A DNA stretch of 64,000 nucleotides. It comes from a virus. The stretch lies in the IMG/VR virus record IMGVR_UViG_3300045988_105924, positions 6,565 to 70,564 of that record. The stretch is one strand, 5' to 3'. Positions 9,113 to 64,000 of the stretch are shown here, piece by piece; positions within the stretch are counted from its first letter, which is position 1; each line of letters begins with the position of its first letter. The translations under genes were made by a program, and so were the position numbers. The notes beneath the pieces were generated by a model that ran no database searches, was not told the DNA's origin, and worked only from the letters and a program-made list of their open reading frames with translations.

Positions 9113-9364
9113 ATGAATGAAAAGAGATTTGAAATTGATACGCCTATTGGAAAACTGGTTGCTGAAGCTGATGGAGATTATAAAGATTATCCAGGAATTT
9201 ACATTTATCTTCAGAGAGAAGATGGCGTTCAAATTGATTTGTCTTGCACGGAAATTGATAAAGAAACTGGCGAAGGCAGAGTCTTTATCTGGGAAAATAC
9301 GTCTACAGATGAATGCACTAAGATGATGCGATGGACTAAAGAACAACTTATGATTAAAGAGTGA
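9113..9364 (+). CDS. hypothetical protein (83 aa)
   Basis: SD aaggagatggtaat then ATG. Confidence 0.55.
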   Translation: MNEKRFEIDTPIGKLVAEADGDYKDYPGIYIYLQREDGVQIDLSCTEIDKETGEGRVFIWENTSTDECTKMMRWTKEQLMIKE

Positions 9365-9383: not shown

Positions 9384-10691
9384 ATGACTACTAATAATCC
9401 TATGACCGTAATAACCTCTAAGCCCTTTGGTGTACTGAATGTGGATGTGTACCAGAATGACAAGCATCAGTATTACATGACTCGTGAACAAATTGGTGCA
9501 GCGCTAGAGTACAATAATCCTAATAAGGCAATTCAAAACATCCATGTTAAGAATACGGATCGTCTTGACCCTCTTTCAACATTCCTCAAACTGAGGAAAG
9601 TTGAGGGCGGAATCACGAAGGAACGTGAATATATTGTTTACAGTTTGCGTGGTGTTATGGAAATCTGCCGTCTGTCACGTCAGCCGAAAGCAGATGCGTT
9701 CATGGATTTCTGCTGGGACATCATGGAATCCTTGATGCGTGGTGACACCGTTCTGGCTACGCCTCAGATGGATGCTGCACTGAGTAAAGAATTTATTGAT
9801 GTAAGACTTCACGCTCTGTTTGATAGTATGAAGAACCTTCAGAGTGAACTTGATTCCACTCGCAAGGAGCTCGGTGACCAAATTGAGGAAGCTCGTGCTA
9901 CTAGCAACGAAGCACTGAATGTAATCAGCAGCGTGTCTCAGTGTGTCCATCAGATTAAGGATAAGCAGATGGATAATTCGATTCGTGCTAAGAGCTATAC
10001 TCCTCGCAATGTGTTTCGGGATGAAATGAGTGACTGGCGTAAAGATTTGTATAGCAAGATTGGTGTGATTGCAAATACTAAAGGTTACACAAATAAAGAA
10101 ACGCTTCACAAGATCTATGAATATCTGAATCGTAATTATGGTTTTGTTTTGGAAGATGCTCGTGCAAAGTATATTAAGAGAACGAATCGTAGTGGGAAAA
10201 TTTCAATAATCGACATTATCGAAGAGGATTCCACTTGGAAATCTATCATGGAGGCTGTTGTTGCAGATATGTACGTAGCATCTATCGAGCGTCTGCATCA
10301 GAATCAGAATGAACTTCGTCCGACTCCAAAGGCTGTCGAAGCAGTTTCTGAAACAAATATGAACGTTACTCCTGTGATTGATGTGGTAGCTAAAGAAGTC
10401 GTTAACAAAAAACTTAAGAACAAGAAACAGAGTGAGACGGCGAAGATCCTTTTTCCAATCATGATGCCTCTGGCGGAAAAACTTGGTGACAAGCCACAAT
10501 ATAAGCACACTTACACTCTGATTTATGAGCGTATTGGCTATAAGAAAATGAATAATTTGTTTGTGGCTTACGAAAAGGCACACGGTAAGGCACCGCATCC
10601 GAAGACTAAGGTGTTTATCGAAAATGAAAAGAATCTCGCGCTATTTAAGAAGACTGTGAAGCAGCTGGTGAAAGGACAGGAGAATAAGTAA
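9384..10691 (+). CDS. phage antirepressor-like protein (Bro-N/AntA-type N-terminal domain)
   Basis: N-terminal FGVLNVDVYQNDKHQYYMTREQIGAALEYNNPNKAI resembles Bro-N/ANT domains; SD gggagtaaacaaaa then ATG. Confidence 0.5.
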   Translation: MTTNNPMTVITSKPFGVLNVDVYQNDKHQYYMTREQIGAALEYNNPNKAIQNIHVKNTDRLDPLSTFLKLRKVEGGITKEREYIVYSLRGVMEICRLSRQPKADAFMDFCWDIMESLMRGDTVLATPQMDAALSKEFIDVRLHALFDSMKNLQSELDSTRKELGDQIEEARATSNEALNVISSVSQCVHQIKDKQMDNSIRAKSYTPRNVFRDEMSDWRKDLYSKIGVIANTKGYTNKETLHKIYEYLNRNYGFVLEDARAKYIKRTNRSGKISIIDIIEEDSTWKSIMEAVVADMYVASIERLHQNQNELRPTPKAVEAVSETNMNVTPVIDVVAKEVVNKKLKNKKQSETAKILFPIMMPLAEKLGDKPQYKHTYTLIYERIGYKKMNNLFVAYEKAHGKAPHPKTKVFIENEKNLALFKKTVKQLVKGQENK

Positions 10692-19652: not shown

Positions 19653-21719
19653 ATGTCTGATTTCAAGAAATTTCGTGCACTGCTGCAGGACCACTTCAAT
19701 GAGATGGTGAAGGGCGAAAGCCCTCTGTTTATCACCGATGCAGACGAGGATGAACTGTATAATCTGTATCTCGACAGCTTCCCAGCTGGCACGAATGAGT
19801 TGTTCCGTAAGCGGCGCGAGTATGACTGTTCCTGCTGCCGCCGTTTCGTAAAGAACATCGGTAAGCTGGTTTCCTTTATGGATGGTCAGATGGTTACCGT
19901 CTGGGATTTCGATACCAAGTCCGATGTTTATCAGCCGGTTGTGGATGCGCTGGCTGCCTATGTGAAAACCTGCGCTGTTGTGAACCCGTATTACGTCAGC
20001 CGCAATATGATCTCTGATAGCAAGTTTGGCACTGAGATGAACTATGAGTATGACGCTGATCATAAGGCGGTTCATACCTGGGATCATTTCGTTGTCGAGA
20101 TTCCTCAGCGGTTCATTGTGCGTCCCGATGACGTACCTACCAAGATGGCTCAGTGGCGTGATTCCGCCAATGTGTTCAAGCGCTCTCTGGAGGAGCTAAC
20201 CATGGATGCCGTGGACACCGTGCTTGAGCTGATTGCGCAGAACAGCCTGTATCGCGGTAAGGAGTTTGAATCTCTGGTTCGTGGCTTCAAAATCGATAAG
20301 CAAGTGTATGATCGTCTGCCTGATGAAAAGAAGTCCGCTTATGTTTGGATGGCTCCCGGCGGAGCTTCGATGAACCGGCTTCGCATCCGCAATACGGCAA
20401 TCGGTACTCTGCTGGTGAACCTGAGCGAGGGCATGGACGTGGATGCTGCTGTGTCTGCGTTTGAGGCCATTGTTGCTCCCGCCAACTATAAGCGTCCTAA
20501 GGCGATTTTTACCAAGAAGATGCTGGAAGACGCACAGAAAACCGTCACTGAGTTGGGCTATATGAACAGTCTGGGTCGCCGGTTTGCTACTCTGGACGAC
20601 ATCACCGTAAATAACGTTTTATTCTGTAACCGAGACGCAGCCCCTCGTATTACTGGCGCTGTGAATCCGTTTGAAGCAATGGCGAAGACTGTCGCAATCG
20701 ATCCTAAGAAGTTCGGCCGCGCAGAGGAAATCGGTATTGATAAGTTTATCAAGGACGTGCTGCCCACCGCGACTGGTCTGGAACTGTTTATGGAGAATCG
20801 GTTTGAGAAGAATATGACGTCTCTGATTGCTCCGCAGGATAAGAACGCGCCGTCTATGTTCAAGTGGGCGAATGGTTTCAGTTGGGCGTATACGGGTAAC
20901 GTGGCTGACAGCCAGATCCGTGAGAACGTCAAGAATGCAGGCGGTAAGGTTGATGGCGTGTTGCGTTTCTCTATTCAGTGGAACGATAAGCAGTGCGAGT
21001 GGGATGGAAATGACCTTGATGCCCACTGTGTTGAACCGAACGACTTTGAGATCTATTTTGGCAACAAACGAGATTGGAGTACTGGTGGCAATCTGGATGT
21101 AGATATTATTCATCCTGATCGCGATGAGGCCGCTGTTGAGAATATTACATGGCCTGACATCAAAAAGATGAAGGATGGTAAATACGAGTTCTTTGTTCAT
21201 TGCTTCTCTAACCGTGGCGGCAAAACCGGCTTCCGCGCAGAGATTGAATTTGATGGTCAAATCTACTCCTTCAATTACAATATTCCGCTGCGTCAGACTC
21301 AGAATGTTTCTGTTGCTACTGTTGTGTTGAATGATGGGCAGTTTACTATTAAGGAACATCTCAATAGTTCTACTTCTTCCCGTGAAATCTGGGGTGTGAA
21401 TTCCAATCAGTTTGTACCGGTGTCCGTAGCAATGTATTCTCCGAACTACTGGGACGAGCAGAGTGGTAACGGTAATCGTCATTACTTCTTCATGCTCAAG
21501 GATTGTGTAAACCCTGAAAAGCCCAATGGATTCTACAATGAATTCCTGAAGGCGGAACTGCTACAGCATAAGCGAGTATTCGAGGCTCTTGGTTCTCAGA
21601 TGGCAGTTCAGTCGGTAGATGACCAGCTGTCCGGCGTTGGGTTCTCTGAGACGAAACATGATTCCTTTGTTGTCAAGGTTCAGGGCGCTACTGAGCGGGT
21701 TCTGAAAGTTGTTATTTAA
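19653..21719 (+). CDS. large protein of unknown function (688 aa), GC-enriched
   Basis: long ORF with a strong C-ending codon bias distinct from flanking AT-rich genes; CSCC cluster near the N-terminus; no P-loop or other recognisable catalytic motif. Confidence 0.65.
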   Translation: MSDFKKFRALLQDHFNEMVKGESPLFITDADEDELYNLYLDSFPAGTNELFRKRREYDCSCCRRFVKNIGKLVSFMDGQMVTVWDFDTKSDVYQPVVDALAAYVKTCAVVNPYYVSRNMISDSKFGTEMNYEYDADHKAVHTWDHFVVEIPQRFIVRPDDVPTKMAQWRDSANVFKRSLEELTMDAVDTVLELIAQNSLYRGKEFESLVRGFKIDKQVYDRLPDEKKSAYVWMAPGGASMNRLRIRNTAIGTLLVNLSEGMDVDAAVSAFEAIVAPANYKRPKAIFTKKMLEDAQKTVTELGYMNSLGRRFATLDDITVNNVLFCNRDAAPRITGAVNPFEAMAKTVAIDPKKFGRAEEIGIDKFIKDVLPTATGLELFMENRFEKNMTSLIAPQDKNAPSMFKWANGFSWAYTGNVADSQIRENVKNAGGKVDGVLRFSIQWNDKQCEWDGNDLDAHCVEPNDFEIYFGNKRDWSTGGNLDVDIIHPDRDEAAVENITWPDIKKMKDGKYEFFVHCFSNRGGKTGFRAEIEFDGQIYSFNYNIPLRQTQNVSVATVVLNDGQFTIKEHLNSSTSSREIWGVNSNQFVPVSVAMYSPNYWDEQSGNGNRHYFFMLKDCVNPEKPNGFYNEFLKAELLQHKRVFEALGSQMAVQSVDDQLSGVGFSETKHDSFVVKVQGATERVLKVVI

Positions 21720-22923: not shown

Positions 22924-23008
22924 GCCAAGGTGCTGCAAATGGGAGACAGGGCGAGCCCAAACCTCGCTGTGGAAACACATGCGGTTTCGAATACCGTCCT
23001 TGGCACCA
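22924..23008 (+). tRNA. tRNA-Leu (anticodon CAA), type II
   Basis: hand-folded cloverleaf: acceptor GCCAAGG/CCTTGGC, 3-bp D stem, anticodon arm GCGAG-CCCAAAC-CTCGC, variable arm TGTG-GAAA-CACA, T arm GCGGT-TTCGAAT-ACCGT, encoded CCA. Confidence 0.75.
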
Positions 23009-23048
23009 GAGCCCGAACGTCCACCTATTAGATATTGGAGGCAAATTC

Positions 23049-23930
23049 ATGAAAAGAATCGACAAATTTACAAAAAAAGAAATTGAGCAAGTTTTTAGAG
23101 AGAGTAAAAGCTTAGATGCTGTTGCAAGAAAACTTGGATATAAAGACAACAGCGGTGGAACTCACTCGGCTTTAAAGAAATATGTTGAAGAGAATAATAT
23201 AGACATATCCCATTTTACTGGGCAAGGCTAGAACAAAGGTAACTTTGATTTGTCAAAATTTACAAAGGGAGTATCTTTTAGCAGTCAGTTAAGGAAAGCC
23301 TTGCTTTACATAAGACCTCATAAATGTGAATGTTGTGGCAATACAGAATAGTTGGGACATGAAATTCCATTGGAGGTTCATCATGTAGATGGAGATAGGC
23401 TTAACAATGAGTTGAGCAACCTACAACTTTTATGTCCAAATTGTCATGCTCAAACAGATAATTACTGCGGAAAAAATATAAGATACAAAGAGGCCGTTCC
23501 AGAAGAAAAGTTGATAGAAGCACTTAAAATATCACCAAATATAAAACAAGCACTTTCTAAAATTGGTATAAATTATTCCGCGAAGAGTTGGTACGACAAA
23601 GCTAAAAGATTGATGGAAGAAAACAATATCGAATTTAGTAAAAAGGAAGTTTCAGTTCCTGTTAAGAAAAGAGAACATAGATGCAGACGATGCTCTGTGT
23701 GTGGCAAACCTTTACAATACAATACAAAAGGAACGTTGTGTAAAGAATGCTATAGGCATTCGCCAGATAGAAGGAATGTTGAATGGCCATCAAAAGAAAC
23801 TTTATTGAATGATATAACAACTATGTCTTTCTTAAAGGTTGGTGAAAAATATGGAGTGACTGATAATGCCGTTAGAAAATGGTGTAGATATTATGGCCTC
23901 CCGGCAACTAGGAAAGAATTAAGAAAATAA
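23049..23930 (+). CDS. HNH homing endonuclease, one 294-codon frame containing two in-frame TAG codons (23229-23231, 23349-23351)
   Basis: single frame 23049..23930; the HNH core PHKCECCGNTE-[TAG]-LGHEIPLEVHHVDGDRLNNELSNLQLLCPNCH is contiguous only if TAG is translated; no frameshift is needed; SD ttggaggcaaattc then ATG. Confidence 0.55.
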
Positions 23931-23936
23931 TACACG

Positions 23937-23962
23937 TGGCGAGATAACTCGCCACATTATAT
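23937..23962 (+). terminator. hairpin GTGGCGAG-ATAA-CTCGCCAC plus A/T tail
   Basis: perfect 8-bp stem downstream of the HNH gene. Confidence 0.55.
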
Positions 23963-24047
23963 GCTACCGTGGTGCAATTGGCGAGACACAGTTGCCTTAA
24001 AAGCAACCGTCCGAGAGGAATTGAGGGATCATACCCCTCCGGTAGCA
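23963..24047 (+). tRNA. tRNA-Leu (anticodon UAA), type II
   Basis: acceptor GCTACCG/CGGTAGC, 3-bp D stem, anticodon arm GTTGC-CTTAAAA-GCAAC, 15-nt variable arm, T arm GAGGG-ATCATAC-CCCTC (atypical T loop). Confidence 0.6.
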
Positions 24048-24053
24048 TCATAT

Positions 24054-24127
24054 CCAGAATGTAGTGTAATGGCAGCACGCTGCGTTTGGGACGCAGAAGA
24101 GCGATTCGAATTCGACATTTTGGACCA
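24054..24127 (+). tRNA. tRNA-Pro-like (anticodon UGG), non-canonical
   Basis: acceptor CCAGAAT/ATTTTGG, anticodon arm CTGCG-TTTGGGA-CGCAG, T loop TTCGAAT, but only 3 Watson-Crick pairs in the T stem and an irregular D arm; CCA encoded. Confidence 0.4.
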
Positions 24128-24150
24128 GTGGAGTATTCCACTTTCTTTTC
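24128..24150 (+). terminator. hairpin GTGGA-GTAT-TCCAC followed by TTTCTTTTC
   Basis: stem-loop plus T-run immediately after the tRNA 3' end. Confidence 0.5.
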
Positions 24151-24223
24151 ATGAATACCTTCCTATTATTCTTGGCTCTCCAAAAAAACGGAGCAGTAGG
24201 ACGCAGCAAGCCAAGTTACATAA

Positions 24224-24313
24224 TGAGGGTTCGCCAAGTGGTAAATGGCATCTGGCTTTGACCCAGACAGCGTGCTTTATAGCCGATCGTCGGTTCGATC
24301 CCGACACCCTCAA
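24224..24313 (+). tRNA. tRNA-Gln-like (anticodon UUG) with an atypical 21-nt extra region
   Basis: acceptor TGAGGGT/ACCCTCA, D arm GCCA..TGGC, anticodon arm TCTGG-CTTTGAC-CCAGA, canonical T arm GTCGG-TTCGATC-CCGAC; a 21-nt variable-position insert is unusual for Gln. Confidence 0.45.
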
Positions 24314-24318
24314 TTTAT

Positions 24319-24407
24319 GGACACGTGATGGAATCGCAGACATGAAAGATTTAGACTCTTTTGCCGTTGATAGCGGTGTGCCCGTTCAAATCGGGTCGTG
24401 TCCACCA
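24319..24407 (+). tRNA. tRNA-Leu (anticodon UAG), type II
   Basis: acceptor GGACACG/CGTGTCC, 3-bp D stem ATG/CAT with long D loop, anticodon arm AAAGA-TTTAGAC-TCTTT, 18-nt variable arm, T arm GCCCG-TTCAAAT-CGGGT, CCA encoded. Confidence 0.6.
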
Positions 24408-24513
24408 TTATCAACTTATGGTTGCGTACCGTTTGTTGATATCCTTTGATTGCCACTATTATTCCCGGCTCGCCAGTGATGGTGCAGTAGTGCTTTGTAA
24501 GCTGGGTTTTCAT

Positions 24514-24588
24514 GCAGCGGTCGTACAACGGCTAGTACATCAGCCTTCCAAGCTGAGGATGAGGTTTCGACTACCTTTCGCTGCTCCA
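24514..24588 (+). tRNA. tRNA-Gly (anticodon UCC)
   Basis: acceptor GCAGCGG/TCGCTGC, D arm GTAC..GTAC, anticodon arm TCAGC-CTTCCAA-GCTGA, T arm GAGGT-TTCGACT-ACCTT, CCA encoded. Confidence 0.75.
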
Positions 24589-24777
24589 ATCTCGTATGGG
24601 TAGGATCTTTGGCGGTCAGATCCGGCCGCGCCTGTGCGAGATACCACCCCGAAAGGGGCGAGATATAGGAAATGTGCATCGCTGTTATTCCTTCCTCGTC
24701 TATATGATATAGATGCAATAGTGTTTTATAAGGAAGGTGCCCAGTTGAATAGTTGCAGCTATTTAACTGGTTTTTAT

Positions 24778-24858
24778 GGGACATTATCTCAATTGGTTAG
24801 AGAACTCAGCTCATAACTGAGCATATGTATCACGGTTCAAGTCCGACATGTCCCACCA
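24778..24858 (+). tRNA. tRNA-Met/fMet-like (anticodon CAU)
   Basis: acceptor GGGACAT/ATGTCCC, D arm TCTC..GAGA, anticodon arm CTCAG-CTCATAA-CTGAG, T loop GGTTCAAGTCC but a weak 3-bp T stem; CCA encoded. Confidence 0.5.
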
Positions 24859-27189: not shown

Positions 27190-27334
27190 CGGCGAGTGCC
27201 GTATGAAATATAAGCCATCAATAAACCAGACGGAGGATAACACATAAAATGAATAGTGCATGAATTGATTCAAGACAATAAAAAGAAACATAAGTGATTA
27301 TCAATGAAACAAAATTATATAAAGGAGACTTGAT

Positions 27335-28438
27335 ATGGCAGATAGAATTTTTAATCTTCCTCAGACCCGTGGTTCTTTTGAGATGGCTGGTAAGGTCACC
27401 GGCACCCAGCGTAGCAACTTCTATAACGAGAAGGAGACTAAGAATGGTGCTATGCGCCGTGTCCTGAGCTTTGGCGTTCAGACTTCCAATGAAAACACTT
27501 TTTATGTTGATCTTGATGGTATGCCTCGTGATAAGGTTTACTTCTTCCGCCGTGCCGATAAGGACAAGGGCATCGAGAAGGATAAGAAGGAAGTTGCTTG
27601 GAAGGATCGTCTGACTTATGTTGCACCGGAAGGCTATGATATGATTGGCGTTAAGGTCGGTGTTACCAAGAAGACGAATGAGTCTGGTAAGGTCGTCAAT
27701 GATAACAAGACTCTGACTGACTTCGATGCAGCCAAGGAGATCTCTGATAACCTGCATGATGGTGACAATGTGTATGTCCGTGGTAACATCGAGTACAGCA
27801 CTTACAACGGCAAGCACCAAATTCGCTTCGTTCCTACTCAGGTGTCTCTGAGCTCTAAGGAAATCGACTTCGATGCAGAGGGTTTCGAGGAGCTGGCTCT
27901 GTTTACTCAGACCATTGTTTACACTGGTTGCCGCAAGAGTGATGAGGATGATGAAGTAGTTGTTGATGCAAAGATCGTGAATTACAACACCATCGAGGAT
28001 GCAGAGTTCTTCATTGACTATAAGGCAAACACTCAGAATAAGGTTCTGGCTGATTCTATTCGCAAGCGTCTGAAGCCCTACACCAGTTTCGAGTGCTTTG
28101 GTCCCATCGTTAATCAGCAGAAAGTTGAGGAAGTTGAGACTGAGAATATCTGGGGTGGTCCTAACAAGATGAAGCGTCAGGGCACTCCGGCAGTTCGCAA
28201 GCTGTATATCGAGGGTGTTAATCCTGATTCCTTTGATCCGAATCCTGGTGATAAGGATGCGGAGCCCACTTACACTGAGGACAATATCTCTGAGGCACGG
28301 GCAAAAATTGCTGCCAACGCTCAGGCAAAGAAGGACTTCGACGGCAAGGCTGCTGAGAACGACACTTCTTGGTGGGGTGGTTCTAACAAGTCTACTGCAA
28401 CTCCTGTAAACGAGGAAGAGGATGACTGGGGAGTGTAA
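27335..28438 (+). CDS. abundant acidic-tailed protein, putative ssDNA-binding protein
   Basis: very strong codon bias; acidic C-terminus NEEEDDWGV; lies directly upstream of the recombination ATPase; SD ataaaggagacttgat then ATG. Confidence 0.4.
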   Translation: MADRIFNLPQTRGSFEMAGKVTGTQRSNFYNEKETKNGAMRRVLSFGVQTSNENTFYVDLDGMPRDKVYFFRRADKDKGIEKDKKEVAWKDRLTYVAPEGYDMIGVKVGVTKKTNESGKVVNDNKTLTDFDAAKEISDNLHDGDNVYVRGNIEYSTYNGKHQIRFVPTQVSLSSKEIDFDAEGFEELALFTQTIVYTGCRKSDEDDEVVVDAKIVNYNTIEDAEFFIDYKANTQNKVLADSIRKRLKPYTSFECFGPIVNQQKVEEVETENIWGGPNKMKRQGTPAVRKLYIEGVNPDSFDPNPGDKDAEPTYTEDNISEARAKIAANAQAKKDFDGKAAENDTSWWGGSNKSTATPVNEEEDDWGV

Positions 28439-28455
28439 TTTTTAGTCTTAGCTAA

Positions 28456-28469: not shown

Positions 28470-28484
28470 ATAAGGAGTTTAGTT

Positions 28485-28778
28485 ATGCAGAATACTCTTG
28501 AGTATACCGCTTATAATGGTATGAAATTTTACATTGTCTATATCGAAGCGCTTGAAAAGGAACCTGAAGAAGACTCTCCGATGATGTCTATTGTGTTTAC
28601 TACGCATCCTGAGATTATTGCAGAAGCTAAAGCCGACGCGGAATGCAATGGTGGTGCTGTTCCGGTAGGGTGTAAAGACCTTCTGGTTGATAGTGTGGAT
28701 AACATCACCCGTCAGTTGGATTATGTTGCTCATGCAGTTGAAACGGGTGATCCGTGGTATGAGTGTTTGAAAGTTTAA
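28485..28778 (+). CDS. hypothetical protein (97 aa)
   Basis: SD ataaggagtttagtt then ATG. Confidence 0.55.
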   Translation: MQNTLEYTAYNGMKFYIVYIEALEKEPEEDSPMMSIVFTTHPEIIAEAKADAECNGGAVPVGCKDLLVDSVDNITRQLDYVAHAVETGDPWYECLKV

Positions 28779-28811
28779 TAAAAGAAAAGATTTAGAGAGG
28801 AATTTACATAT

Positions 28812-29960
28812 ATGGCTATGATTCGTAAGGCATCTGCTGTTCGTAAGAAGCTTCATATGCTGATTTATGGTGAACAGGGAACTGGTAAATCTCGTACTGC
28901 TATGCAGCTGTGCTATCTGAAGAATGCAGACGGTAAGCCATTCCGTGTTCTGTATTTGGATACCGAGAATGGTTCTATTGATAATTACACCGAGGAACTG
29001 GAAGCTAATGGTGTGAATCCTGACAATCTGTTGATTGTTTACACCCAGTCTCTGGCAGAAGTTCAGGATTATATCAAAATGGTTACCAACGATGAGGACA
29101 TCGAGGATGAGAATGGAGATGTTTATCTGGACGCAAATGGCAAGCCGTTCCGTGCAGACGCTTTGGTTGTTGACTCTGCATCTATTCTCAAGATGACAGC
29201 CACTCAGGGGCTCACCGCCTTCTCGCAGAAGCGTGCCAAGGTTAAGGCCGCATCTCAGGGTCTGACTGGTGATGAAAAGGCAGTTAAGATTGAGGGTGCT
29301 GGCATGGAGCTCAAGGATTTCAATACCCTGAACTTCAAGGGTCAGTCTCTGATTTTGGATCTGAATGCATCTGGTGTGAACTACATCGTTGTTTGCCGAG
29401 AGAAGGACGAGAAGCATACTAAGGTTGTGAATGGTTCTATCGTAAGTGAGCCTACTGGTCGTAAGATTCCTGATGGGTTTGCTGGTCAGGAGTACAACGT
29501 TGATACTGAGTTCCGCCTGTATTTTCAGGATGGTCAGCAGCTCGCTTTCTTCGATAAGGATCGTACCGGTATGCATAAGGGCGGTGAGGTCGTTGAGGAT
29601 CTGACCCTGCTTGAGTATCAGGATATTATCTCTAGTAGCGCAAAGAATCGGGAGAACGTCATCAAGAACGGCTTAAACGATGCTGTTAAGACTGAGGTTA
29701 AGCTGAGTATGCGTGACCTTGGTATCGAAAACGATGAGCCGGATGATGTTCCGGCAGATAAGAGTTCTGATAGTAAAGAGCCTTCTATGGATGACATCAA
29801 GGCAAAGCTGAACGACCTGATTGCTTCCGCTTCTCCTGTGAAGAAGAGCGCAGCACAGAAGGCTGTTAAGGCGGCTGGCCTGTCTACCGCGTTCCGTTCT
29901 ATGACTGATATTGAGGAACTGAAGAAGGTCGCCGCAATCATGGAGAAGGAACTGGCTTAA
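28812..29960 (+). CDS. RecA-fold AAA_24-family ATPase (Sak4-like recombination protein)
   Basis: Walker A GEQGTGKS near the N-terminus with a typical AAA_24 layout; SD tagagaggaatttacatat then ATG. Confidence 0.55.
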   Translation: MAMIRKASAVRKKLHMLIYGEQGTGKSRTAMQLCYLKNADGKPFRVLYLDTENGSIDNYTEELEANGVNPDNLLIVYTQSLAEVQDYIKMVTNDEDIEDENGDVYLDANGKPFRADALVVDSASILKMTATQGLTAFSQKRAKVKAASQGLTGDEKAVKIEGAGMELKDFNTLNFKGQSLILDLNASGVNYIVVCREKDEKHTKVVNGSIVSEPTGRKIPDGFAGQEYNVDTEFRLYFQDGQQLAFFDKDRTGMHKGGEVVEDLTLLEYQDIISSSAKNRENVIKNGLNDAVKTEVKLSMRDLGIENDEPDDVPADKSSDSKEPSMDDIKAKLNDLIASASPVKKSAAQKAVKAAGLSTAFRSMTDIEELKKVAAIMEKELA

Positions 29961-46923: not shown

Positions 46924-47715
46924 ATGGAAGTTAAACTGATTACACATACTCCTGATCCTGAAAAGGTGGTAGCCGCAGCCGCAAAACTGTGTTACTCCAA
47001 TTCGAGTATTCAGGATTTGATGGATGGATTGACCGATGAGAAGGTTGATGAGTTTCTAAATCGACTTTCTAGCCTTGGTCACGCTAGTCCTACGGAGCAT
47101 GTGACTTTTACTTTTGGAATCGAAGGTGTGAGCCGGTCTTTACTTGCCCAGATTACCCGGCATCGCATTGCATCATTCAGTGTACAGAGTCAGCGCTATG
47201 TGCGAATGAATAATGCGGAAATCATCATTCCTGATGTTATTGACGATGATAGCGAAGCAAGAGAGGCATTTAAACAGGCAATTCAGACCGCTGAATATTC
47301 TTATAAGCACCTGTGTCAGATTCTTGAGGACAAAATTACTGAAGAACTGATGGTTGCTGATTCTCGTTTGACTGAGAAAAAGGCACGCGTAAAAGCATCC
47401 AAGATTGCAAATGAGAACGCACGTTCTGTTCTGCCAAATGCTTGTTCCACGAAGATGATTGTTACAATGAACGCTCGTTCGTTGAACAATTTCTTTAATC
47501 TGCGTTGCTGTGAACGTGCGCAACCTGAAATAAAGGAGCTTGCAACCGAGATGCTAAAGCTGGTTTATCCGATTGCTCCTCATCTGTTCAAGTGTGCTGG
47601 TCCCAACTGCTGTGGCAATGGTTGTACCGAAGGAATGATGTCTTGTGGTAAGTTCCACGAGATTCGTGATAAATACGACAAACTGAAACAGGAGGCATTA
47701 AATGGAAACACTTGA
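46924..47715 (+). CDS. thyX: flavin-dependent thymidylate synthase ThyX
   Basis: ThyX signature RHRIASFSVQSQRY; SD aaggaggattaa then ATG. Confidence 0.8.
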   Translation: MEVKLITHTPDPEKVVAAAAKLCYSNSSIQDLMDGLTDEKVDEFLNRLSSLGHASPTEHVTFTFGIEGVSRSLLAQITRHRIASFSVQSQRYVRMNNAEIIIPDVIDDDSEAREAFKQAIQTAEYSYKHLCQILEDKITEELMVADSRLTEKKARVKASKIANENARSVLPNACSTKMIVTMNARSLNNFFNLRCCERAQPEIKELATEMLKLVYPIAPHLFKCAGPNCCGNGCTEGMMSCGKFHEIRDKYDKLKQEALNGNT

Positions 47716-57724: not shown

Positions 57725-58462
57725 ATGGAACTTTATAATGATGATTGTTTGAAAATTATGCCACAAATCACAGATAAATCTATCGATATGATTCTTTGTG
57801 ACTTGCCCTATGGTGTCACTCATAATAAATGGGATTCTGTGATTCCTTTCGATAAGCTGTGGGAACAATACAACCGAATCATTAAGGATAACGGTGCGAT
57901 TTGCCTATTTGCCGATGGAATGTTTATGGCAGATCTTATGGAAAGTAACCGCAAAATGTGGCGATATAATCTCGTGTGGAACAAAGTTCTTTCATCTGGA
58001 TTTTTGAATGCAAAACGAATGCCACTCCGCAGTACAGAAGAAATTGTTGTTTTTTATAAAAGGCTTCCTACATATAATCCACAATTCACAGAAGGTGAAC
58101 CGCTACACGGAATGGGCACAAAATATAAAGATGGAAATCGTAAAAACAACAACTACGGCAACTTTAATTCTACAAATCAGGCATCTGCGGAAAGAGTAGG
58201 AGACACAAAGAAGTATCCAAAATCTTTGGTGACTTTTCCAAGAGCGCATAGTTCTGTTATGCTTCATCCAACCGAAAAGCCAGTGGCTTTAATGGAGTGG
58301 CTTATCAGTACATATACGAATAAAGGTGAAACCGTTCTTGATAATTGTATGGGAGTTGGTGGAAGTGGCGTCGCCGCTAGAAAGCTTGAACGAAATTATA
58401 TTGGAATAGAGCTTAATCAGAAATATTTTGAAATTGCCAAAGAAAGAATCGAGGTCGCATGA
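57725..58462 (+). CDS. DNA methyltransferase (beta-class N6-adenine/N4-cytosine; motif IV DLPY before motif I)
   Basis: ILCDLPYGV then C-terminal LDNCMGVGGSG; no cognate restriction endonuclease nearby. Confidence 0.7.
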   Translation: MELYNDDCLKIMPQITDKSIDMILCDLPYGVTHNKWDSVIPFDKLWEQYNRIIKDNGAICLFADGMFMADLMESNRKMWRYNLVWNKVLSSGFLNAKRMPLRSTEEIVVFYKRLPTYNPQFTEGEPLHGMGTKYKDGNRKNNNYGNFNSTNQASAERVGDTKKYPKSLVTFPRAHSSVMLHPTEKPVALMEWLISTYTNKGETVLDNCMGVGGSGVAARKLERNYIGIELNQKYFEIAKERIEVA

Positions 58463-61742: not shown

Positions 61743-62561
61743 ATGATTATTGACTGCAAATCTATCGCACAGGATATCAAAAATAAAATCAAGAATGTCA
61801 TCGCAGAAGATGACTATGCTCCTATTTTACATATTTATCAAGTAGGGGACAACCCTGCATCCAATGCTTATATTCGCGGCAAGCTGCGTGACTGTGAAGA
61901 GGTTGGAATCGGAGTGGAGCTTGTCAAACTGCCAGAAAATATTACCGAAGATGAATTGAACAACAAGATCTTAGAAGATTATAATTGGGAATATGTGGAC
62001 GGTATCATTGTTCAGCTTCCGTTGCCAAAACATATCGACCCTAAAAATATTTGTATTCCAGATGAACTTGACGTTGATGGCTTTAATTCTACATCTAAAT
62101 TTCAGCCCTGCACTCCGCTGGGCGTTATGAAGATTTTTGACTCCATCGGTTACGATCTGGATGGCAAGAATGTACTCGTATGCGGTCAATCTGATATTGT
62201 TGGTCGTCCGCTGGTTGATATGCTGATTAAACGGCACTGTAATGTGATCTCTGTGAATAGCACGGGTTCCCGCATGAAGGCCACTACTCTTGGATTTGAA
62301 ATGGTCGATGTGGTCATCTCTGCTGTGGGCAAGCGCAACTTTATCACACCGTTTGGTCTTGATCGGGTTGAAGTCTGCATCGATGTTGGCATCAACTATG
62401 ACGAGAACGGAAAGCAACACGGCGACTGTGCCGATGATATTTATGAGATGGAAGATATCAAAGTAACCCCTCGTATCGGCGGAGTTGGCCTTATGACACG
62501 TGCTATGCTACTTTACAATGTATGTGTGGCAAGGTATGGAGAAGAGAAGATGGAGAGGTGA
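61743..62561 (+). CDS. folD: bifunctional methylenetetrahydrofolate dehydrogenase/cyclohydrolase FolD
   Basis: whole-length FolD pattern (YIRGKLRDCEEVGI, DGIIVQLPLP, VLVCGQSDIVGRPLVDML, Rossmann GxSxxxG); SD aaaggagactcaca then ATG. Confidence 0.75.
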   Translation: MIIDCKSIAQDIKNKIKNVIAEDDYAPILHIYQVGDNPASNAYIRGKLRDCEEVGIGVELVKLPENITEDELNNKILEDYNWEYVDGIIVQLPLPKHIDPKNICIPDELDVDGFNSTSKFQPCTPLGVMKIFDSIGYDLDGKNVLVCGQSDIVGRPLVDMLIKRHCNVISVNSTGSRMKATTLGFEMVDVVISAVGKRNFITPFGLDRVEVCIDVGINYDENGKQHGDCADDIYEMEDIKVTPRIGGVGLMTRAMLLYNVCVARYGEEKMER

Positions 62562-62833: not shown

Positions 62834-64000
62834 ATGATAAGACGTAAAGATAATAATGGCAAAGTTTTAAAAGACGGCGAGAGCCAGAGAAAGGATGGGA
62901 GATACCAATATAGATGGACAAACAAACTTGGAAAACGCTCAATAATATACGCCACTTCACTTAAAGAATTGAGAGAAAAAGAAGCTGAAATCCAAGAAAA
63001 ACTTAATTTGGGTATAACGTCTACTTCAAAAATCACAGTGTACCAATTAGCAAAAAGACATCTCGAAGAAACAAAACTTACTATTAGGCCAAGCAGCTAT
63101 AAAACAAAATCGCAGAATTTGAAAATCTTTCAGAATCACCTAATTGGGGAAATGAATGCAACTGATATTTTAGTGCGCGATGTAAAACAATTTGCACGAG
63201 AATTGGATAACGAAGGATATTGTTATACAACAATCAGAGATGTCATGTCTTTAGCTAGACCGGCATTTCAAGAAATGTTTGATGAGAATATAATTCCTAG
63301 AAATCCATTCGTTTTTAAATTAAATACAGTTGTCAAATGTGACTCAAAAGAAAAAGAAATATTAACAGAAGAGCAGTATCAAAATCTGATCAAGTTCATG
63401 AAATCTAGTCGAGTATATAAAAGGCATGTTGGCATGGTGATGCTTTTGCACGAGACCGGACTTCGAGCAGGAGAATTATGCGGGCTAACAAAAAAGTCAT
63501 TTGATTTTGATAACAACACTGTTACTATATCTCATCAGATGGTGTACGATGGAAAGAGCGGCGGGCTGTATTTAGCACCTACAAAAACAGAAAGTGGGAT
63601 AAGGACTATCCCATTATCTAAAGACGCCATCATTGCTTTTGAAGAAGCGATAAAACAACGTCCGATTGTAAAAGCAGAGAGAATAATAGATGGGCAAGCC
63701 GACTTCTTGTTCATAGCAAAAACTGGAAGGCCCTATACGAATAAAAACCTTGTTAGAATTTTTGAAGGACTAATCAAAGCCTATAATAGTTGCCATGATG
63801 AACCATTGCCTGAAGTCACTGCCCATAGTATGCGCCACGAATATTGTACACGGCTTGTCAAAGCCAAGATGGATGTTAAATCGGTTCAATACCTCATGGG
63901 ACATTCGTCGCCCGATATAACCTTGAAAGTGTATACTCATATCTTAAAAGAAGAGACCGAAGCAGAGGCAATCAAACAGTTTAATAGGATTGTTTCCTAA
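62834..64000 (+). CDS. int: tyrosine integrase (phage integrase family)
   Basis: N-terminal SAM-like/core-binding region; catalytic box LRAGEL, HSMRHEYCTRL and LMGHSSPDITLKVYTH (R-H-R-Y pattern); stop at 63998-64000. Confidence 0.8.
   Translation: MIRRKDNNGKVLKDGESQRKDGRYQYRWTNKLGKRSIIYATSLKELREKEAEIQEKLNLGITSTSKITVYQLAKRHLEETKLTIRPSSYKTKSQNLKIFQNHLIGEMNATDILVRDVKQFARELDNEGYCYTTIRDVMSLARPAFQEMFDENIIPRNPFVFKLNTVVKCDSKEKEILTEEQYQNLIKFMKSSRVYKRHVGMVMLLHETGLRAGELCGLTKKSFDFDNNTVTISHQMVYDGKSGGLYLAPTKTESGIRTIPLSKDAIIAFEEAIKQRPIVKAERIIDGQADFLFIAKTGRPYTNKNLVRIFEGLIKAYNSCHDEPLPEVTAHSMRHEYCTRLVKAKMDVKSVQYLMGHSSPDITLKVYTHILKEETEAEAIKQFNRIVS

Follow-up and report, generated by a model that had tools for sequence, protein, structure and literature searches.

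We analysed a 64,000-nucleotide stretch of viral DNA (positions 6,565 to 70,564 of the IMG/VR record IMGVR_UViG_3300045988_105924; hereafter the window), in which an open reading frame (ORF) for an HNH homing endonuclease lies within an array of transfer RNA (tRNA) genes and contains two in-frame TAG codons (Table 1). Linear contigs of 110–148 kb from a very abundant phage group of the human gut match the window over 64 kb at their right-hand end. The evidence from this gene and its relatives suggests that both amber codons are read as sense, likely as tryptophan (Trp), by a phage-encoded suppressor tRNA with a CUA anticodon, tRNA(CUA).

An HNH endonuclease gene interrupted only by amber codons

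The HNH ORF is a single frame of 294 codons (293 amino acids and the stop), running from ATG at 23049 to TAA at 23928–23930. Inside the frame, codons 61 and 101 are TAG, and no other stop (neither TGA nor TAA) and no frameshift occurs. A frame of this length with two stops in DNA of 41% GC is far beyond chance. Re-reading of the sequence thus agrees with the initial annotation, made from the sequence alone, which had described one continuous frame with amber-only interruptions.

The same annotation had placed the second TAG inside the HNH catalytic core, between PHKCECCGNTE upstream and LGHEIPLEVHHVDGDRLNNELSNLQLLCPNCH downstream, and had proposed a Pfam profile search as a check. With the TAG codons masked, PF01844 (HNH) aligns to residues 93–135 across the second TAG with 25.0 bits (cut-off 21.4), confirming that the codon splits the core, and PF13392 (HNH_3) matches with 24.8 bits, a score equal to its cut-off of 24.8. 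The cysteines C93 and C96 lie upstream of this TAG. In an alignment of 29 homologues H111, N120, N124, C129, C132 and H133 are invariant, and H112 is conserved in at least 90% of the sequences. The two codons stand in the peptide contexts HFTGQG-TAG-NK and CCGNTE-TAG-LGHEIPLEVHH. Database searches return the homologues counted in Table 1 at E ≤ 1e-5, the best of them at 4e-129.

Table 1. Coordinates of the HNH gene, its amber codons and other features of the window.
Feature	Position	Strand	Details
HNH homing-endonuclease ORF	23049–23930	+	Pfam HNH and HNH_3; 697 homologues; dN/dS 0.10–0.24
In-frame TAG no. 1	23229–23231	+	Codon 61; motif GQG-TAG-NKG; Trp column
In-frame TAG no. 2	23349–23351	+	Codon 101; CGNTE-TAG-LGHE; within HNH core; Trp column
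HNH catalytic core, residues 93–135	23325–23453	+	CxxC ... HH ... N ... N ... CPNCH; PF01844
tRNA array hosting the HNH gene	22924–24858	+	Leu-CAA, HNH, Leu-UAA, Pro-UGG, Gln-UUG, Leu-UAG, Gly-UCC, Met-CAU
Second gene with in-frame TAG	6714–7208	+	164 amino acids; function unassigned; TAG 7029–7031
Tn916-type tyrosine integrase	62834–64000	+	PF00589, PF02920; ORF runs past the window edge

Conservation and mobility of the HNH gene

Orthologues with protein identity as low as 51–66% (L001, L003 and L004–L008; related loci carry L numbers throughout) retain TAG at both codon 61 and codon 101. Most of them also have TAG at codon 22, and none contains a TAA, a TGA or a frameshift. Measured over the whole ORF against these TAG-bearing orthologues, the ratio of nonsynonymous to synonymous substitution rates (dN/dS) takes the low values given in Table 1, and dS between HNH lineages exceeds 2 or is saturated or not computable. 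In the IMG/VR contigs L004–L009 and L268–L277, the tRNA array likewise contains this HNH gene, and the TAG columns coincide with those of the window copy. Among nine diverged copies read as DNA, codon 61 is TAG in all nine and codon 101 is TAG in seven, the remaining two (L428 and L431) having TGG. Recurrence of the same TAGs in independent Logan, ENA, JGI and IMG/VR assemblies rules out an artefact or a miscall caused by base modification. The low dN/dS, the saturated dS and the retention of TAGs without TAA, TGA or frameshifts in diverged lineages indicate a functional gene under purifying selection, in which the TAGs are old. The view of the initial annotation that the ORF is not a decayed pseudogene is thereby upheld. 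Relatives with TGG at both positions do exist, and the window copy has no lesion other than its TAGs.

At least 12 of about 150 contigs of the phage group carry the HNH gene. It lies between tRNA-Leu(CAA) and tRNA-Leu(UAA) in the window and in L005–L007 and L009, and between tRNA-Leu(UAG) and tRNA-Gly(UCC) of the same array in L004 and L008. Sporadic occurrence in collinear genomes with two insertion sites is what a mobile homing endonuclease gene looks like; the cleavage activity itself is putative.

Several features of the array were observed alongside. The tRNA-Leu(CAA) directly upstream of the HNH gene (22924–23008, called by ARAGORN) carries C in place of U at position 33 and receives no match from the Rfam tRNA model even at E ≤ 1; this tRNA, beside the HNH insertion, may be degenerate. 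The tRNA-Gln(UUG) at 24224–24313 measures 90 nucleotides and scores 52.8 bits with Rfam; its variable region contains an additional arm of some 16 nucleotides. This long form occurs in the window and L009-type genomes, at eight loci in total, and L004–L008 have one of the normal 74 nucleotides. In the related JGI contig L003, a transfer-messenger RNA gene with the tag peptide ANNNSYRCAA lies beside the tRNA array (6345–6726).

Residues aligned with TAG in the HNH family

Columns 61 and 101 hold Trp (GQGWNKG and NTEWLG) in 89/89 full-length TAG-free homologues, a set picked from the database homologues for having Trp at both TAG columns. It is the distant homologues that have Trp there, whereas the closest database proteins have Gln at these and at further Trp columns. 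Other residues at column 61 are glutamine (Gln), in eight homologues flagged for Gln at 61 or 101, and histidine, in the public entry P0003. In all five Gln-bearing homologues whose DNA was read, the Gln is a TAG in the DNA. Public entries P0001, P0004–P0007, P0009, P0011 and P0022 give the HNH protein with Gln at TAG sites, and four others (P0002, P0013, P0042 and P0044) are shortened, starting just after the second TAG. Translation in the style of genetic code 15, in which TAG encodes Gln, places Gln at conserved Trp positions in these public proteins.

Further HNH columns with TAG in the nine copies read as DNA are less uniform. Columns 22, 139 and 181 are aromatic or mixed (tyrosine (Tyr), phenylalanine, Trp) in TAG-free homologues, and column 20, with TAG in one allele, is variable. 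The close relatives L429 and L431 have TAG and TGG interchanged at two HNH columns, and TAG/TGG swaps are also seen between L001 and L003.

A tRNA(CUA) resembling phage tRNA-Trp

The initial annotation had called for a search for a tRNA with a CUA anticodon. Such tRNAs are present in related genomes of the phage group and absent from the window. They belong to a second tRNA cluster on the opposite strand, which in related contigs lies about 17 kb left of the window edge, with the large-terminase gene some 1.7 kb downstream. The order of this cluster is Thr, Thr, (Tyr/Asn), Ser, X, Met, where slot X holds tRNA-Trp(CCA), tRNA(CUA), tRNA-Lys(UUU) or nothing. Nine variants of tRNA(CUA), exemplified by GCGCCTATAGTTTAATTGCTTAAAACAGCAGACTCTAAATCTGCCTCTTGGGAGTTGAAGTCTCTCTGGGCGTGCCA, occupy the same slot as the phage tRNA-Trp(CCA), between Ser-UGA and Met-CAU. 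The two tRNAs have in common the 5' acceptor strand GCGCC(C/T)(A/G)T, the discriminator G73 and the CCA end; their anticodon loops read CU-CUA-AA and CU-CCA-AA, and their 3' acceptor strands differ at position 69 (GGGCGT in the CUA tRNAs, GGACGT in tRNA-Trp). Five of the six CUA variants detected by ARAGORN are closest overall to tRNA-Trp. The tRNA(CUA) is unlike the phage tRNA-Gln, and unlike the phage tRNA-Tyr with its long variable arm. Other phages in the data set (L016, L024 and L066) have CUA tRNAs whose ends are Gln-like, U1...A72.

The survey combined ARAGORN, a family-specific pattern and the Rfam tRNA model. ARAGORN fails to call one of the tRNA(CUA) variants, in which the T-loop is unusual. 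This variant scores 45.3 bits with the Rfam model; its recovery by pattern and Rfam overturned an ARAGORN-based reading in which several HNH-bearing genomes lacked a suppressor. By pattern scan, the tRNA(CUA) family is present in at least 115 related IMG/VR contigs. In L425, a tRNA-Lys(UUU)-like gene directly upstream of tRNA(CUA) (9275–9346) has an anticodon loop shortened by a deletion and is not called by ARAGORN.

Co-occurrence of tRNA(CUA) with in-frame TAG

All eight HNH-bearing contigs in which the slot is covered carry tRNA(CUA) (contigs 127311, 086263, 112321, 114123, 107720, 114640, 103907 and 119057), compared with 35/80 contigs (44%) of the group at large. Two further HNH-bearing contigs fall outside this count: IMGVR_UViG_3300045988_097151, whose slot region was not among the sequences read, and IMGVR_UViG_3300045988_110678 (L258), an apparent exception that was dismissed because its locus is cut before the tRNA slot.

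The gene for the large terminase, downstream of the second tRNA cluster, shows a parallel pattern. Its Trp codons 56 and 63 adjoin the Walker A motif. Both are TGG in 42/42 genomes without tRNA(CUA), and one or the other is TAG in 16 of the 35 genomes that have it (Fisher p = 3e-7, with no correction for shared ancestry in this or the other association tests). The terminase codons stand in the contexts YMLEQSWNASHVL-TAG-ACSR and LEQS-TAG-NASHVLWACSR. Two genes neighbouring the terminase likewise have TAG at Trp columns. Genomes with tRNA(CUA) account for 33 of the 35 instances of recurrent in-frame TAG in left-arm genes.

Taken over these genes, six columns with TAG are Trp-only in TAG-free relatives (61 and 101 of the HNH protein, 56 and 63 of the terminase, 69 and 89 of a 341-amino-acid protein), and only one of 14 TAG columns is Gln. 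TAG is enriched on Trp-only columns at p ~5e-4 in a rough test. Of all codons in these genes that differ from TAG by one mutation, only 8% are TGG, so this concentration is unlikely to be due to chance. The TAG tallies were finally anchored on reliable reference genes; an all-frame BLAST tally was discarded, as it was dominated by non-coding and antisense frames and returned no more than the single-mutation neighbours of TAG (Q, W, L, K, E and Y).

TAG as a terminator

Among the approximately 105 plus-strand genes of the window, TGA is the stop of 54 and TAA of 49. The initial annotation had proposed the use of TAG as a terminator in the same genome as a check, and none of these genes ends in TAG: the sole apparent TAG ends are those of the two genes with in-frame TAG. 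The recoded TAGs of the window thus number three in 64 kb, in two genes. The second of these genes corresponds to one continuous ORF of 168–173 amino acids in 86 relatives, where the column of its TAG is TAT in 25, TGG in 19, TAC in two and TAG in one. Across 80 left-arm loci, TAG ends three of some 1,220 genes with a length of 120 amino acids or more, and TAG terminators are nearly absent there whatever slot X holds. Coding coverage of the window is already 91% under the standard code; only two genes change when TAG is read as sense, and the alternative code brings no marked gain in coding density or gene length. A scan of 20 window proteins, each with 245 amino acids or more, revealed no release factor and no tryptophanyl-tRNA synthetase (TrpRS). 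Stop-free antisense frames of 314–408 codons were also noted on the minus strand (27218–28441, 28479–29672 and 20619–21560), for instance opposite the gene at 27335–28438; they are probably a by-product of codon usage.

Genomic context

The window is the replication arm of the phage genome, with genes for a DnaB-like helicase, a RecJ-like exonuclease, a PolIII-alpha-type DNA polymerase and an exonuclease V-like protein, and it also encodes NrdD, a ligase, ThyX, a methylase and FolD. The ORFs at 46924–47715, 57725–58462 and 61743–62561 encode ThyX (Thy1), the N6/N4 DNA methylase and the FolD-type methylene-tetrahydrofolate dehydrogenase/cyclohydrolase. The Tn916-type tyrosine integrase is the last gene of the arm, and related contigs stop at the match or no more than about 300 bases past it; the 110–148 kb phages are therefore probably temperate. 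One scan of the integrase against 185,579 species genomes, made in search of the host, gave no close match. Megablast and tblastn searches against GenBank phages returned only unannotated fragments and 30–35% identical DNA polymerases of phages of Bacillus-like hosts. The phage phAss-1 was set aside as a relative, being a dense code-15 phage with Gln-type suppressors (PMC10607447). Between the genome arms of L258, a sub-threshold match to the HEARO RNA (HNH-endonuclease-associated RNA) was seen on the minus strand at 5329–5568, with 33.9 bits against a gathering threshold of 83 and E = 3e-4.

Probable decoding of TAG as tryptophan and its alternatives

The initial annotation had proposed that TAG is suppressed or reassigned in this phage. 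Alignment of the HNH domain across the TAG, purifying selection on the HNH gene, the lack of TAG terminators and the co-occurrence of tRNA(CUA) with the TAGs of the HNH and terminase genes all speak for this proposal. We put at roughly 0.7 the probability that the HNH TAGs are decoded as sense, likely as Trp, by a tRNA(CUA) derived from tRNA-Trp, and that they gate a few genes. The amino acid at TAG is most likely Trp rather than the Gln of code 15, and the suppressor would accordingly be a tRNA charged with Trp, as its likeness to tRNA-Trp suggests. We infer that the genome from which the window comes carries such a tRNA.

The proposed course of events is as follows. A functional homing endonuclease gene would have inserted in the phage tRNA array, with both of its TAGs translated as Trp. 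The suppressor tRNA(CUA) would have arisen from the phage tRNA-Trp(CCA) through a change of C35 to U. The phage group would have purged TAG as a terminator, and suppression would do no harm because of that purge. TAG would have replaced TGG in the HNH gene, in the gene at 6714–7208 and, in many relatives, in the terminase and its two neighbouring genes, so that a full-length product could be made only with the suppressor tRNA expressed. Such a gate would probably prevent synthesis of the nuclease and the packaging enzyme during lysogeny or early infection, the timing and regulation being conjectured from the arrangement of the genes. A broader proposition is that large (110–148 kb), widespread temperate gut phages possess a natural amber-to-Trp code that works through diversified tRNA-Trp-derived suppressors in a swappable slot beside the packaging genes, serves as a switch for few genes (the homing endonuclease, the terminase and some others) and is mistranslated as code 15 by current pipelines. 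We hold it with less assurance, the balance leaning in its favour.

A number of observations weigh against decoding as Trp. No tRNA(CUA) is found in the 64-kb window, including the array that hosts the HNH gene. Two loci, L423 and L424, have TAG at a Trp column of the 341-amino-acid protein without a recognisable tRNA(CUA). Not all amber codons fall on Trp or aromatic columns: L001 and L002 have TAG at column 126, the Gln of NLQLLCPNCH conserved in 82/89 TAG-free homologues, and L431 has TAG at column 45, which is Tyr or methionine in TAG-free homologues. TAG decoding may therefore not be purely Trp, or these alleles may be impaired. Frameshifts are present in the HNH copies of L271 (contig 114640), near the N-terminus, and of L277 (contig 119057), in an A-run near the C-terminus; they could reflect decay or homopolymer assembly errors. 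The absence of a correction for shared ancestry tempers the association tests. A change at C35 of the tRNA-Trp anticodon normally weakens recognition by TrpRS, and the Escherichia coli su7 tRNA, a tRNA-Trp with a CUA anticodon, is charged largely with Gln and inserts mainly Gln.

As a separate observation, the tRNA slot of L423 and L424 (approximately 9430–9545) contains a tRNA-like element of about 108 nucleotides (GAGCTTG...CAAGCTC), with a normal T-arm and no standard anticodon loop.

The strongest alternative, which we nevertheless regard as unlikely, is that TAG encodes Gln under code 15, as in crAss-like, Lak and phAss-1 phages, and that replacements of Trp by Gln are tolerated. Gln is the sole amber reassignment described for phages, the public database already shows it at TAG sites, the conserved Gln 126 is replaced by TAG in one allele, and the E. 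coli tRNA just mentioned makes Gln charging plausible. However, the TAGs stand on Trp or aromatic columns in the HNH protein, the terminase and two other proteins, even though CAG is about twice as frequent as TGG in these genes, and tRNA(CUA) resembles tRNA-Trp and neither the phage tRNA-Gln nor the Gln-like suppressors found elsewhere. A contrasting Gln pattern is displayed by a true code-15 phage with the same HNH family (L014, a 213 kb contig), in which TAG falls at Gln columns (G-TAG-GWN and IR-TAG-AL) and Trp is encoded by TGG.

Slightly less probable still is ambiguous or aromatic decoding, in which TAG would be read as Tyr or as a mixture of Trp with Gln or Tyr, by the suppressor or by near-cognate host tRNAs. 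HNH columns 22 and 139 are mainly Tyr or phenylalanine in relatives, TAT outnumbers TGG at the column of TAG 7029, and single TAGs occur at a Gln and at a Tyr/methionine column. Against such decoding, the six independent columns listed above are Trp in every TAG-free relative, Trp is naturally present at all the mixed aromatic columns, and tRNA(CUA) is unlike the long-armed phage tRNA-Tyr.

Highly improbable is a decaying homing-endonuclease pseudogene, in which TGG-to-TAG transitions have created genuine stops that are never read through: such genes do often decay, two related copies are frameshifted and the window has no suppressor tRNA, but selection has acted on the whole ORF over saturated dS with the same TAGs kept, TGA and TAA never occur although TGG mutates to TGA as easily as to TAG, TAG terminators are absent or nearly so, and the essential terminase carries TAG only where tRNA(CUA) is present.

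Comparison with known recoding systems

Recoding of stop codons is established in phages, with TAG reassigned to Gln and TGA to Trp or glycine. In phages whose code is unlike that of their host, Borges et al. describe only TAG to Gln and TGA to Trp (bioRxiv 10.1101/2021.08.26.457843). The group studied here resembles the code-15 crAss-like, Lak and phAss-1 phages in many respects: these are human-gut phages with in-frame TAG in conserved genes including the terminase, avoidance of TAG as a terminator, a phage-encoded tRNA(CUA), early genes that fit both codes, and recoding proposed to gate late-gene expression (PMC10607447; PMC9523058; bioRxiv 10.1101/2021.08.26.457843). It differs from them in that TAG aligns with Trp and the suppressor is like tRNA-Trp, rather than Gln and tRNA-Gln. 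Recoding is also sparse, with three codons in 64 kb and few genes per genome as opposed to 28% of ORFs in phAss-1, and the slot of the suppressor varies in content, with tRNA-Trp(CCA), tRNA-Lys or nothing at this place in sister genomes.

In the code-4 Agate and Jade phages, where TGA encodes Trp, the homing endonuclease of a group I intron uses TGA in preference to TGG, and the authors suggest that the use of TGA delays production of the nuclease until the suppressor is present (bioRxiv 10.1101/2021.08.26.457843). Sparse TAGs as an expression gate follow the same logic as that of Borges et al. for the TGA-rich homing endonuclease, and in both cases an early-region homing endonuclease swaps Trp codons for a recoded stop. 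The stop is TAG here and TGA there, and among the scanned window proteins neither a phage TrpRS nor a release factor was seen.

The plastid code of Balanophoraceae (NCBI table 32) reads TAG as Trp, and to our knowledge this assignment is otherwise confined to Balanophora plastids. It is the same assignment in a different setting, a plant organelle with an extremely AT-rich reduced genome and genome-wide recoding, unrelated to phages or to a mobile suppressor tRNA. Laboratory amber suppressors exist in the tRNA genes of phage T4. Like su7, they arise by a single anticodon change in tRNA-Trp or a phage tRNA; those are laboratory mutants, whereas the tRNA(CUA) family is natural, exists in nine variants and is coupled to the replacement of TGG by TAG. 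A mention of UAG to Trp is found in bioRxiv 10.64898/2026.01.09.698701, and a full-text literature search found no report of TAG-to-Trp in a virus or phage. What appears to be novel in this group is the Trp assignment, the Trp-derived suppressor family, the very sparse recoding and the polymorphism of the suppressor within one phage population.

If correct, reading of amber as Trp would add a new natural code to phage recoding, and the phage group would have a genetic-code variant that is polymorphic within a single population. It would mean that tRNA-Trp is naturally convertible to a working amber suppressor, which bears on tRNA identity rules and genetic-code engineering, and it would reveal that public databases systematically misannotate such proteins, with Gln where Trp is conserved. 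Sister genomes with tRNA-Trp(CCA), tRNA(CUA) or neither in one slot, and with few TAGs, offer a tractable model. The system would represent codon reassignment at an early or minimal stage and would link recoding to the control of both a selfish nuclease and DNA packaging.
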